Assembly: GCA_031414595.1 (NCBI GenBank)
Contig: JANNVX010000041.1
Span: 64,001 to 128,000, forward strand
Source: Deinococcales bacterium
GTDB lineage: Bacteria > Deinococcota > Deinococci > Deinococcales > JAAFIG01
Reading direction: 5' to 3'
DNA: 64,000 nt
In this document: in pieces, positions 33,001 to 36,000 of the stretch
Layout of the letters: every line of letters starts with the position of its first letter
How positions within the stretch are numbered: position 1 is the stretch's first letter
Position numbers: made by a program

Positions 33001-36000
33001 GCCATTCGCATATTTTTTCTTTTGGTGAACGCCCTTACCGCATGTACTACCGTAAATTAAATCATAGCCTCGAGATAGTCCATATTGAACAAAGCACCAA
33101 ACGCGGGGCGTTGCTGAATAAACCATTGCGTTAAACCCTTTCCTCATGGTTTTGCGGTATTTTGTGGAGCGTATGTCTCAACCTACTCAAACGAACCCGC
33201 TTAAATCCTTACAACAAGGCACAATGATGGCAATGGCAACCGACATGAACAACGCGCAAGCTGTTGCGGCTGGTTTATTGCCGTGCTTTGGTTTTGAAAT
33301 CACGGCGGCTGATGAGCAATTCCAAGTCAATGTTGCCGAGTTAAACACGGGGCATGATATTCGTCTGGCTCGAGAAGTCGCGGCTGGAATTCAAGAAGCC
33401 ATGCGCCAATTGGTTGAAAAAATAGACGGACACATTGCCACCCAAGAACCCACCAATATCTCCAAACTGAGTTAAATCTTGAGTGCTTCCCTTTTGTCCT
33501 TGGTAAGCACTTTTATGGTCTTAATCGCAAACCACATTCCCCGAGAAGTAACGGCTGGCAATTCGGTTGATTGAACCATCTTTTTTCATCGCTTCTACCG
33601 AATCACTGAGCAATTTAAGAAGTTCTGTGTTGCCTTTTTTAACTGCCATGGCAATTCTGTCCTCGGTTAAGAGCGGTGAGAGGTTGACTCGAGGCGTGGG
33701 GTATTTTTTGGCAAAGGCTAAAGCGGCTAAACGGTCACTGATGTAGGCATCGGTTTTACCCGACTGCATGGCTTTGAAGGCTTCTAAGTCGGTGGCAAAG
33801 GTGATGACTTGTTTGATTCCAGGGATTTTACGTCCGTACTCAGCAAAGGTAGAGCTTTGTGAGGCAGAAACAACTTTACCTCGTAAACCCTCTGCGTCAA
33901 GTGCTTTGCCGACCAAGGCGATAATCACTGTACCTGTACAGTAATGAGGGATGACAAAATCCACATATTTTTCTCGATTCGCTGTGATGGTGTGCGAAGC
34001 CAATGCCACATCTATTTTACTTTCACCCAGTTTTGTAAAAAGTGAATCAAAGGAAACATTGCGCCACTCGGCTTTTAAGCCAAGGCGCTGAGCTAAAGCT
34101 GCGCCAAAGTCTATTTCAAAACCGACCAAATTGCCTTTTTCAACCGAATAAAAAGGCGGGTAATCCCGACTATTGCCAAAAATGAGTGAGCCACTGGTTT
34201 TGATGTCCGCAACTGGACGAGCCAAGCCCAAAGACAACAAACTGATACCCACCACAAAAGCTCCGATTATAACTTTCATATACACCTCGAGTGGAAAATG
34301 AATTTGGTTGGAAAGAACCAAATTTCTCAACCATACAAAGAGCCTACACCCCAAATTAAGTTTGGCAAAGTCTTTTTACGCATTGTGCAGCAAGACATTT
34401 TACGCATTGTGCAGCAAGACATTTTACGCATTGTGCAGCAAGACATTTACGCATTGTGCAGCAAGACATTTACGCATTGTGCAGCCAGCCTCAAAACACC
34501 ACTGTTTTATTCTGATAGACCAAAACCCGATCCTCGAGATGTGCCTTGACTGCCCTTGCCAGCACTGCCCGTTCAATATCGCGTCCGACCCGGGTTAAGG
34601 CTCTGACATCATCGCGGTGTGTCACCCTCGAGACATCTTGTTCGATAATTGGACCACCATCGAGTTCAGCAGTCACATAATGGGCGGTTGCGCCAATGAT
34701 TTTTACGCCTCGAGCCGCCGCACTTTTGTATGGATTTGCGCCAATAAAAGCGGGGAGGAAACTGTGGTGAATGTTGATGACTGGCACACCGAGTTTTTCT
34801 AAAAAATCTCCACTGAGAATCTGCATGTACCGTGCCAGCACTACAAAATCGGCTTGGTTGTGCAGCAACTCAAGAATTTGCGCTTCCGAGCTTGACTTAT
34901 CTGTGCCTTTTTGTGATTCGACCAAATGATACGGAATTTCAAACGCCGTGACATCTGCCTCGAGTTCGGTGTGGTTGCTAATCACCATTGGGATTTCACA
35001 ATCAAATTCGCCACGCCGTACCCGCCAGAGTAAATCCATTAAACAATGGTCATACTTGCTACACAAAATCGCCATGCGTTTTGGTTCGGCAGCATACGAT
35101 AAACTCCATTCCATGTTGAACGGCACAGCCACCACTTCGGCAAACGCCCGTTCAAATTGGACTCTAGTCATGTCTAAGCCCTCTAAGGAAAATTCTTGAC
35201 GCATAAAAAAACGCCCACCGTCTGGGTTAATGCTGTGCTGGTCTGAAGAAATAATATTGGCGTTGTGATTGAATAAAAACTGCGAAACCGCCGCTACAAT
35301 GCCGCGTTTGTCGGGGCAACTAATCAGTAAACGAGCAGTATTCGGACGGGCTACAACTTTAGAAGAAGGTAGGTCTGACATTAGGCTGTAATTCTAAGGT
35401 CAAATGGGCTTGGCGCAAAGGTCATAATGAGCCGATGACCAAAAACTGGAATCCCCAATATGTGCAGCACCTGCTCGAGCCACATTTTAAGCAAGCCAAA
35501 ACCCATTTTCTATTGCCTCTGCTCGAGATGAGCCGCGCCCATGCAATCATGCTTTTGGGCTGTGACTTACTAGAAAAATCTGTGGCACAAAAAATTCTTG
35601 CTGCCCTAGACCACGTAGACAGCGATTTGCTGGTCTATTCACAACACTTTGAAGACCTGTTTTTTGCACTCGAGGCACAACTGATAAAAAAAACAGATGC
35701 CATCGGTAATCTACAAATTGCCCGTAGTCGCAACGACGTGGATGCAGCCCTGATTCGGATGGTCTTGCGCCAAAAAACCCTCGAGATGATGGCAAGTCTC
35801 GAGCAATTGGCATTTGTGCTGCACACCAAAGCCTTAGAGGGTGTGACTTGGCTAATGCCGGGCTACACCCATCACCAACCCGCCCAACCGACCACTTTAG
35901 GGCATTACCTGACTGGGATTCTGGGTGTGTTAGGGCGCGACATGCAGCGCCTAAAAGCCGCTTACTCGAGCATCAACGCCTCACCACTTGGGGCTGTTGC

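Follow-up and report, generated by a model that had tools for sequence, protein, structure and literature searches.

Why should a short intergenic spacer be filled for the most part by one 24-bp unit set head to tail, and why do tandem arrays of nearly the same unit length recur throughout the genome that carries it? The question is raised by an array in a 64,000-nucleotide stretch of a contig from a Deinococcales bacterium, referred to here as the window, in which position 1 is the first letter. The array occupies most of a 211-bp spacer whose two bordering genes both lie on the minus strand, and a second member of the same class lies elsewhere in the window:

34374..34485, no strand assigned: tandem array of a 24-bp unit (TTTTACGCATTGTGCAGCAAGACA), 4.8 copies (TRF, 98% matches, score 210)

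34491..35381, minus strand: PurU-like (formyltetrahydrofolate deformylase-like) ORF, upstream neighbour (ORF list; Pfam ACT and Formyl_trans_N, E = 1.7e-38)

33521..34279, minus strand: family-3 solute-binding protein ORF, downstream neighbour (ORF list; Pfam SBP_bac_3, E = 4.8e-33)

63292..63339 (C41:127292-127339 on the contig), no strand assigned: tandem array of a 23-bp unit of unrelated sequence, 2.1 copies, 92% matches (TRF on the window and genome scan)

The first-pass annotation had described about 4.8 copies of a 24-bp unit at this site, and TRF recovers the same period and copy number. On inspection of the sequence, three copies are 24 bp in length and are followed by copies of 23 bp, as one T is missing from the last copies. 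The array lies 5 bp from the stop codon of the PurU-like ORF and 95-206 bp upstream of the ATG (34279) of the solute-binding protein ORF. No promoter-like site was found between 34150 and 34650, and the array displays no hairpin potential (z +0.7 and +1.1); one weak terminator-like site is located nearby, within purU. Like most other arrays of its class, it has no dispersed copies in the genome.

Scanning of the whole genome (4,488,778 bp in 120 contigs) places the array in a sizeable class. At a TRF score of at least 50, periods of 21-27 bp account for 177 of 343 non-overlapping arrays (43, 7, 34, 53, 16, 7 and 17 at periods 21 to 27, respectively), and periods outside this band are sparsely occupied, with 2 arrays at 17, 4 at 19, 6 at 20, 1 each at 28 and 29, and 2 at 30. 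A stricter set (score at least 30, at least 1.9 copies, at least 85% matches and at most 5% indels) comprises 107 arrays at 21-27 (20, 3, 22, 37, 10, 5 and 10), 16 at 16-20 and 2 at 28-38, so that the 111 arrays of narrow period range reported earlier are borne out under thresholds of our own. Counting only exact arrays of at least two copies in a threshold-free scan gives 39 at 21-27, 14 at 13-20 and 3 at 28-80. The shuffled-genome control likewise holds, as TRF finds zero arrays at periods of 19 or above after a 100-bp local shuffle. The arrays are scattered over the 120 contigs without significant clustering (26 of the gaps are shorter than 3 kb, where random placement gives 19 on average and 34 at most); they reach 5.6 copies, and in many of them the copies have diverged (75-95% matches).

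A band of this kind could reflect the sequence available for slippage, and short direct repeats were therefore counted by spacing. Exact direct repeats of 9-10 bp number approximately 18-47 per spacing at spacings of 12-60 other than multiples of 3, and approximately 65-94 at multiples of 3 (21 and 24 excepted), while long runs and full arrays are in excess only at 21-27. Slippage substrate is equally common across all spacings of 12-60, so that a shortage of it does not account for the band. The narrow 21-27 band is thus real, and is not the product of thresholds, chance or scarce substrate.

The placement of the arrays relative to genes was assessed with a crude longest-ORF caller, which over-calls coding sequence (90%); on these calls, 55 arrays are coding (0.0136 per kb) and 52 intergenic (0.115 per kb). 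The enrichment between genes that had been claimed is therefore upheld, at 8.5-fold and not the 12-16-fold first given. Periods of 21, 24 or 27 make up 45 of the 55 coding arrays vs. 22 of the 52 intergenic ones (Fisher p = 2.6e-5), and selection against frame-breaking copies is enough to account for the intergenic excess. The ratio of periods 21:24:27 is 12:24:9 in genes vs. 8:13:1 between them; as, measured against 24, periods 21 and 27 are more frequent in genes than the intergenic spectrum would predict, more than one process may contribute.

All of the dense genomes are multi-contig metagenome assemblies (MAGs), which raises the possibility of an assembly artefact. Four sequencing runs from one study, possibly the source of the MAG, contain the stretch, and five others have just 8-12% of its words. 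The short-k contigs of all four runs break off at 34403 and restart at 34456, 30 bp into the array on each side, and no contig of these runs bridges it. Coverage by X2 and X3 is almost nil in the bins 32005-34005, with no contig spanning the gap. An artefact is nevertheless very hard to credit: the copies of many arrays are diverged, the same arrays appear in separate assemblies with equal or different whole-unit copy numbers, arrays within ORFs are biased toward staying in frame, a few arrays are present in G013 (one contig) and G019 (four contigs), and G006 is also a MAG, yet sparse.

Comparison with relatives shows how the arrays arise and change. Among 21 arrays examined, 18 have orthologous sites in G001 or G005 (90-97% nucleotide identity), and at 11 of these 18 the array differs in length by whole units (approximately 1-3), with changes in bp of -42/-21, -24, -24, -51, -70/-71, -51/-48, -21, -26/-25, -27, +25 and +46. 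The orthologous site of the example array holds about 1.75 diverged copies in G005 and about 1.7 in G001. A single-copy state is found at C33:33223 and C78:21863 in G005 and at C98:17229 in G003, and an ABA state, in which one unit lies between two short arms, is seen in G005 at C33:34898 (10-bp arm TCATGTCTTG) and C64:81741. The arrays have thus arisen in place and turn over by whole units. Both loci cited earlier for the arrays' coming and going between congeners stand up: the array reported at C41:30585-30632 (here C41:30587) is duplicated in G005 and, judging by split BLAST matches, approximately one unit shorter in G001, and that at C41:45988-46050 (here C41:45971) has 3.5 copies vs. about 1.3 in G001.

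The excess had been called lineage-specific, and it is indeed restricted by lineage, though unevenly within the genus. Of six congeners sampled, five are dense in arrays, two of them judging from biased loci; G003 has 13 arrays in 362 kb and G007 has 6 in 213 kb, but density is approximately tenfold lower in G006, where 1 array is present in 400 kb against 9.5 expected. In four other genera (G011, 2 in 400 kb; G013, the only sample of genus g3, 2 in 400 kb; G019, 2 in 200 kb; G021, 1 in 200 kb) the pooled density is approximately fourfold lower, at 7 arrays in 1,200 kb vs. 28.6 expected (p = 1.5e-6). The sparse relatives also have no band, with 11 arrays at periods 16-20 vs. 8 at 21-27 in 1.6 Mb.

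Each array had been described as unique in sequence, and this is true of most units, which are unrelated to one another; 21 of the 177 arrays (approximately 12%) fall into small similarity clusters and are not independent. Only 12 of 15,576 unit pairs share at least 17 matched bases, vs. 2 in shuffles. Five 23-bp arrays form one cluster, whose unit (tCTTGACCCCTACAGCAGCACCt) is the A half of a dispersed A+B hairpin module of about 38 bp with nested order A1A2A3-B3B2B1. The family-A motif has 20 dispersed matches, mostly single, and whole modules occur as 37-39-bp arrays in G006 and G013; Rfam returned no match for these hairpin-module arrays. Some 21-bp units are composed of three heptamers of the TTTYGCC type, and a few 21-bp arrays derive from heptamer arrays by decay. 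It could accordingly be supposed that modular mobile or low-complexity repeats have been mistaken for duplications. As the clusters and the low-complexity or heptamer-like arrays (approximately 10 of 107) cover at most about 12% of the loci, and dispersed copies are lacking for the example array and for most others, this is a partial explanation, and improbable as one for the class. Dispersed REP/MITE-like repeats likewise exist in many copies, which is found for the five-array family-A cluster and not for most arrays.

Selection for function offers another reading, in which the arrays would serve as protein-binding sites (iteron-like or operator sites spaced about two helical turns apart) or as contingency loci. 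Direct repeats in plasmid iterons are spaced approximately 21-24 bp apart, much as here, and the 8.5-fold intergenic excess would fit. The motif ACCAGT-N4-CATGGG, moreover, occurs 17 times vs. 2.1 expected, with 11 of the occurrences within seven arrays; the subset sharing this motif was noted previously, and it exists, but with seven members and not six. Set against this, the iterons of one replicon share one consensus and one initiator, whereas the arrays here are mutually unrelated and spread over 120 contigs. An EM search for a motif common to the arrays yielded only an uninformative GAACCAG-like pattern of about 5 bits, and the units show no tendency to dyads or hairpins (mean unit MFE -0.96 vs. 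-0.78, sd 1.24). The genes beside four arrays of the motif group, three with the exact motif and one with a near-variant, are unrelated (PLP enzyme, PIN, BatA-type VWA and acyltransferase). More than half of the arrays (55) lie inside ORFs, the earlier reading had found equal density in all spacer types, and contingency loci would be expected to change faster than observed here, where only 11 of 18 loci differ across 3-10% sequence divergence. We consider a functional origin decidedly improbable.

The ends of the arrays carry information on how they were born. In 46 clean arrays (at least 95% matches and no indels), the remainder of array length modulo period was taken as a measure of microhomology; it is 0 in 4 arrays, 1-2 in 8, 3-15 in 28 and at least 19 in 6. 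A remainder of 0 would be expected in 75% of arrays if duplication were blunt (p = 3e-21), and the concentration of remainders at 0-12 (37 of 46) departs from a uniform spread (p = 2e-4). Microhomology of 3-15 bp at the array ends is therefore the ABA-to-ABABA signature of microhomology-mediated tandem duplication (MTD), and not that of staggered cuts. A staggered-cut origin, in which a transposase, integrase or nuclease pair cuts about 24 bp apart and the ends are filled in during abortive or excised insertions, would provide a fixed length of the kind typical of target-site duplications, where it is set by a protein complex; the 12 clean arrays with just 0-2 bp of microhomology and the patchy occurrence of the trait in the genus, as for a mobile enzyme, would agree with it. 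Target-site duplications, however, flank an element in exactly two copies and without microhomology, whereas the arrays here are contiguous, with up to 5.6 copies and 3-15-bp arms in 28 of 46.

Nor do candidate enzymes lend such cutting support: no Ku was detected in any of 5 genomes, and the IS200/IS605 Y1 transposase does not track array density, with G000 holding a marginal fragment only. The genome's CRISPR arrays, at C11, C82 and C101, have a period of about 71 bp (repeats estimated at about 36 bp) and do not provide a ruler, and the arrays studied here are contiguous and lack the unique spacers of a CRISPR array. Taken together, staggered cutting appears even less probable than selected function.

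We lean, with somewhat better than even confidence, toward the reading that these are about 100 mostly unrelated minisatellites generated by MTD, with the slip held to approximately 24 nt in most of the genus. Ordinary local sequence would be copied head to tail in place, usually where short direct repeats lie on either side of it (ABA to ABABA), when a nascent strand or flap re-anneals out of register during replication or repair. Copy number would afterwards drift by whole units, and selection would remove frame-breaking copies from genes, such that 21, 24 and 27 remain there and 23-25 prevail between genes. The misalignment distance would be 24 +/- 2 nt despite microhomology pairs being equally available at all spacings, and this narrowness suggests that the intermediate contains a physical ruler of about 24 nt (approximately 80 Angstrom).

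The same arrays could instead come from ordinary replication slippage without any ruler, the band resulting from unequal persistence as short units are lost or escape detection and long units are collapsed by homologous recombination above a minimal pairing length. In E. coli, RecBCD recombination has a minimal efficient processing segment of 23-27 bp, with which the upper edge of the band at about 27 bp coincides; the arrays change by whole units, as any VNTR does, and a few arrays of 21-27 bp occur even in sparse relatives (8 in 1.6 Mb). This account does not explain the sharp lower edge, as 9-10-bp substrates exist at spacings of 13-20 and the exact scan is able to detect short units, nor the absence of the band from sparse relatives. 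Of the exact (100% identical) intergenic arrays of period 13-80, 22 of 26 are already within 21-27 (8 at 23, 7 at 24 and 3 at 25). As the youngest arrays are thus band-limited, length-specific birth is favored over later sorting, and it would be births and not losses that are limited in length; persistence without a ruler is unlikely, albeit worth keeping in view. The claim that the excess is the footprint of a length-specific duplication process is hence supported in part, by the narrow band and by its youngest members, while the mutational ruler is reached by inference and about 12% of the loci are not independent.

As for what the ruler may be, our best guess, a speculative one, is a protein-bound single-stranded flap or loop. 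A flap of this length would be too long for easy clearing by the Pol I 5'-nuclease and is about the size covered by half of a double-OB SSB dimer. SSB and Pol I are common to the sparse genomes as well. All 31 genomes checked carry the PolA 5'-nuclease domain, and full PolA aligns intact in G000, G003, G007, G006, G011 and G013. Two double-OB SSB genes are found in each of five genomes searched, RNase HI in 8 of 8, RecJ in 7 of 8 (G006 among them) and MutS1 in all 15 family f1 genomes searched, including G000; xseA is found in 4 of 23, none of them in the genus. None of these candidates, nor Ku or the Y1 transposase, separates dense from sparse genomes. For an Ala/Lys/Pro-rich H1-like protein encoded in the window, matches were confined to G000, G001, G002, G004 and G005, with the dense G003 and G007 lacking any, which is weak evidence given the low-complexity query. 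A link to the hyper-abundant palindrome CTCGAG was also rejected, as the site is present in 13 of 107 units, where 12.9 would be expected, and the distances to the closest site appear random. In a more specific and tentative form of the proposal, which we judge possible but doubtful, a ruler of about 24 nt (a protein-bound flap, a looped nascent strand or an unrecognised enzyme) would measure the intermediate to give one fixed duplication length, having been gained, or a safeguard lost, in the genus after G006 branched off.

Among known systems, MTD has the closest likeness, and a preprint describes it as the chief way in which tandem repeats arise across life, and as rising in rad27 mutants (10.64898/2026.02.28.708716). 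The features shared with the arrays here, as given in two sources, are duplication of unique local sequence between short direct repeats, later expansion, and retention of in-frame events in genes (10.64898/2026.02.28.708716; PMC8639346); what differs is that the duplicated length here stays within 21-27 bp. The preprint, searched by term, gave no mention of length distribution, unit length or peak, and its supplementary figures may show spectra. According to the second source, which analyzes microhomology pairs 3-500 nt apart, the inter-microhomology peak is organism-specific, at 150 nt in S. pombe, and did not appear in E. coli (PMC8639346). Rad27/FEN1 insertions are likewise flanked by short direct repeats and come from unprocessed 5' flaps in Okazaki fragment maturation, with a unique part of 1 to 91 bp in rad27 strains (PMC5677150). 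Those duplications have no narrow band, unlike the arrays of this genus, which in addition keeps its PolA 5' nuclease domain.

Bacterial minisatellites (VNTR, as used in MLVA) resemble the arrays in having units of tens of bp, whole-unit variation and an intergenic or in-frame location. VNTR sets in other bacteria generally have many unit lengths, whereas the approximately 100 unrelated loci here all fall within one length window and change slowly (11 of 18 loci over 3-10% divergence). Flap-processing duplications like those of rad27 strains also form in E. coli polA 5'-nuclease mutants. A search of the open-access literature found no description of a 21-27-bp tandem-duplication band in bacteria, nor of CTCGAG as a highly iterated palindrome.

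Most tandem repeats begin as tandem duplications, and how the length of these is set is poorly understood. About 100 independent events of the same length, in a pattern absent from a congener and from sister genera, make it possible to approach by comparison the step of replication or repair at which the slip distance is measured. If the ruler is true, this would be the first length-quantised duplication process in bacteria, comparable to the nucleosome-scale 150-nt MTD peak of fission yeast; if the band instead reflects retention and not birth, it would reveal a sharp length threshold for tandem-repeat stability. The arrays could also serve as length markers that evolve slowly, for use in these uncultured bacteria of freshwater sediment.

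The genome under study (4.49 Mb in 120 contigs, 47.2% G+C) holds 177 non-overlapping tandem arrays at periods 21–27 with a TRF score of at least 50 (43, 7, 34, 53, 16, 7 and 17 at the successive periods), and outside these periods there are 2, 4 and 6 arrays at 17, 19 and 20 and 1, 1 and 2 at 28, 29 and 30. As the TRF score is biased to long units, the search was rerun at a score of at least 30, with copies, matches and indels also filtered, giving 107 arrays at 21–27 versus 16 at 16–20 and 2 at 28–38; a 100-bp local shuffle of the genome produced no array with a period of 19 or more. 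When exact arrays of at least two copies were sought without a threshold, 39 fell at 21–27, 14 at 13–20 and 3 at 28–80. The 21–27 period band is real, and the counts of the first-pass annotation, which had claimed 111 tandem duplications within it, are reproduced to within a few loci by these three approaches. Period-7 arrays number 23 genome-wide at a TRF score of at least 50, and decayed TTTYGCC-type heptamers make up several 14- and 21-bp "units", a few of the 21-bp units consisting of three such heptamers.

The example array lies at window 34374–34485 and repeats the 24-bp unit TTTTACGCATTGTGCAGCAAGACA in 4.8 copies with 98% matches (TRF), one T being missing from the final copies. It occupies most of the spacer between two ORFs, and a second member of the class is found in the window:

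Example-array borders and second array (window positions)
ATG at 34279, minus strand: family-3 solute-binding-protein ORF, its start bordering the spacer
34491–35381, minus strand: PurU-like ORF (ACT and Formyl_trans_N), its stop codon forming the other border
63292–63339: 23-bp array, 2.1 copies (TRF)

The example array has no hairpin potential on either strand, and no promoter-like sites were detected in window 34150–34650. The same locus carries ~1.75 diverged copies in G005 and ~1.7 in G001, with two variant units in a different order in each, so an old short array has re-expanded in the genome under study by three near-identical units. Short-k contigs from four metagenome runs end within the array. 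Other repeats of the window include a heptamer array (TTTTGCC, 24 copies, 98% matches) at 54366–54535, flanked by 8-bp repeats at 54332–54362, and dispersed short repeats of ~140–160 bp at 31321–31481, 42816–42952 and 44963–45105, each with a dozen or more copies in both G001 and G005; at the first of these, contig depth in the four metagenome runs is 10-fold higher and contigs break.

The closest relatives, G001 and G005, have 90–97% identity over long matches; for G003, G006 and G007 the identity is about 66–83%. In a set of 21 arrays from seven windows, both flanking sequences could be located in G001 or G005 for 18; in 11 of these the difference is about one to three whole units, the other 7 being equal in length. 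G005 is single-copy at C33:33223 and C78:21863, as is G003 at C98:17229, and G005 also holds, for example at C33:34898 (10-bp arm), the ABA state that microhomology-mediated tandem duplication (MTD) converts to ABABA. These loci show in-situ origin and turnover of the arrays. Change at this fraction of loci over 3–10% divergence is slow by comparison with hypermutable contingency loci.

Most arrays are mutually unrelated: when units were compared in all rotations and on both strands, 12 of 15,576 pairs had at least 17 matched bases, versus 2 among shuffled units, and 21 of the 177 arrays fall in small similarity clusters. EM search recovered no motif common to the whole class. One cluster of five 23-bp arrays represents the A half (tCTTGACCCCTACAGCAGCACCt) of a dispersed ~38 bp module, the 16-bp B half of which is tCGGGCTTGGGTCGCt. 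The outer stem of 5–6 bp covaries (GACCC/GGGTC, GACCAC/GTGGTC, GCCC/GGGC) around a conserved inner sequence, and the module is found alone, in whole-unit tandem arrays or in the nested order A1A2A3-B3B2B1, often within a larger inverted repeat GTAGGGGCGA... It occurs across the family, with whole-module arrays of 37–39 bp in G006 and G013; it has no Rfam match and its fold energy is no better than that of shuffles.

Sites of the ~38 bp module
C86:~41800–41960; C1:~30330–30470; C72:10580–10629: genome under study
L015:8306–8383 and 14318–14468: sampled stretch of G006
L061:17875–17955: sampled stretch of G013

A smaller group shares ACCAGT-N4-CATGGG, which, with positions 5 and 11 also allowed to be A and T respectively, has 17 matches in the genome versus 2.1 expected, 11 of them inside seven arrays of period 21–24 (C35:14013, C67:34848, C32:43718, C41:30587, C75:32948, C17:47809 and C88:221925). 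The genes beside four arrays of the group (three with the exact motif, one with a near-variant) are unrelated, and one copy pair sits directly upstream of a tRNA-like sequence, as judged by reading the sequence. The motif may be a duplication-prone site or a binding site.

The birth signature of the arrays is microhomology, not blunt duplication. In 46 arrays with at least 95% matches and no indels, the remainder left after the whole copies measures 0 bp in 4, 1–2 bp in 8, 3–15 bp in 28 and at least 19 bp in 6, where a 0-bp remainder would be expected in ~75% without microhomology (p = 3e-21). Remainders are skewed to 0–12 bp (37 of 46 arrays, p = 2e-4), in the ABA-to-ABABA pattern of MTD, and this pattern speaks against the fill-in of staggered cuts at most loci. 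By a crude ORF caller, 55 arrays lie in ORFs versus 52 between them (0.0136 versus 0.115 per kb, 8.5-fold), and periods are in frame in 45 of 55 versus 22 of 52 (p = 2.6e-5); selection explains this contrast between genes and spacers. Intergenic counts at periods 21–27 are 8, 2, 14, 13, 10, 4 and 1, a spectrum probably nearest to the raw process (~24 ± 1.5 bp), and periods 21 and 27 are commoner in ORFs (12 : 24 : 9 at 21, 24 and 27) than it predicts.

The band is not due to missing substrate. Outside full arrays, exact 9–10 bp direct repeats are present at all spacings from 12 to 60 (~18–47 each where the spacing is not divisible by three, ~65–94 each where it is, excluding 21 and 24), and only at spacings 21–27 are long runs and complete arrays in excess. 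Among exact intergenic arrays of period 13–80, 22 of 26 are at 21–27 with a mode of 23–24, and two of the three at 13–20 are heptamer-derived. As these youngest arrays are already within the band, a length limit at birth is favoured, though not proven.

The same TRF filter was applied to relatives, as samples of the sizes given; all dense genomes (those with many arrays at 21–27) are MAGs.

Arrays at periods 21–27 by genome
G000, this genome: 107 in 4,489 kb
G003, congener: 13 in 362 kb
G007, congener: 6 in 213 kb
G001, close relative: 8 in ~193 kb (biased, loci opposite array-rich windows)
G005, close relative: 10 in ~150 kb (biased likewise)
G006, congener: 1 in 400 kb
G011, other genus of the family: 2 in 400 kb
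G013, other genus of the family: 2 in 400 kb (one genome for genus g3)
G019, other family: 2 in 200 kb
G021, other family: 1 in 200 kb

The trait is genus-level, G006 excepted. Resampling this genome in 400-kb sets gave a mean of 9.6 arrays (P(≤1) = 0.0005), and the other genera pooled have 7 versus 28.6 expected (p = 1.5e-6); the five sparse genomes (G006 and four of other genera, 1.6 Mb) display no band, with 11 arrays at 16–20 versus 8 at 21–27. Because their spacers fail to align with those of this genome, the arrays of G003 and G007 are independent in origin.

Several features of this genome, when tested, showed no link to the arrays or their band: CTCGAG sites, physical clustering, CRISPR repeat length, and unit structure or composition, apart from a slightly higher G+C of units. 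CTCGAG itself occurs at 23,235 sites (24-fold over expectation, one per 193 bp; in the window for example at 34287, 34535 and 34626), at equal density in ORFs and spacers and with 59% of ORF copies in the frame CTC-GAG. Its density is 4.8–6.5 per kb in five further family genomes, against 1.6–1.7 per kb in two other families. The pattern resembles that of the cyanobacterial highly iterated palindrome HIP1; no report of CTCGAG as such a palindrome was found in open-access literature. Several other 6-bp palindromes hardly occur (TGCGCA 2, CGATCG 3, GACGTC 3, GGCGCC 3, CGCGCG 3). Three CRISPR-like arrays of period ~71 bp are present, two sharing a repeat that starts GTCTCGAGACGCGTACTC:

CRISPR-like arrays
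C11:14152–16108
C82:70753–71684
C101:44–1622

Dense and sparse genomes are not separated by presence or absence of PolA, Ku, Y1 transposase, MutS1, XseA, SSB, RNase HI or RecJ, nor by an H1-like protein, the last being weak evidence from a low-complexity query. For xseA, the exonuclease VII large subunit gene, a single weak match turned up among 15 genomes of the family and none among the 8 of the genus; Ku was found in 0 of 5 genomes. At window 60033–60491 (minus strand), a 152-aa ORF consists nearly entirely of Ala/Lys/Pro repeats (PKAAKAAA...) and resembles histone H1-like nucleoid proteins; it has matches only in G000, G001, G002, G004 and G005 of 23 genomes, absence being weak evidence with so low-complexity a query. 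The available part of a preprint (10.64898/2026.02.28.708716) describes MTD as universal and raised when Rad27 is lost, with no discussion there of length spectra, and in PMC5677150 rad27 insertions have unique parts of 1–91 bp. The main texts of the open-access literature searched yielded no description of such a 21–27-bp band. The remaining explanation is an MTD-type process whose slip distance is fixed. By analogy, a protein-defined ruler of ~24 nt is proposed, which would act on a flap or on the looped nascent strand. Double-OB SSB is typical of the Deinococcus-Thermus group, and each of five family genomes has two genes for it. Half of the roughly 50-nt site of this dimeric SSB could serve as the ruler, as could the roughly 70 Angstrom that separate the 5'-nuclease site of Thermus Pol I from its polymerase site; sparse genomes have these two proteins too, so neither alone explains the lineage pattern.
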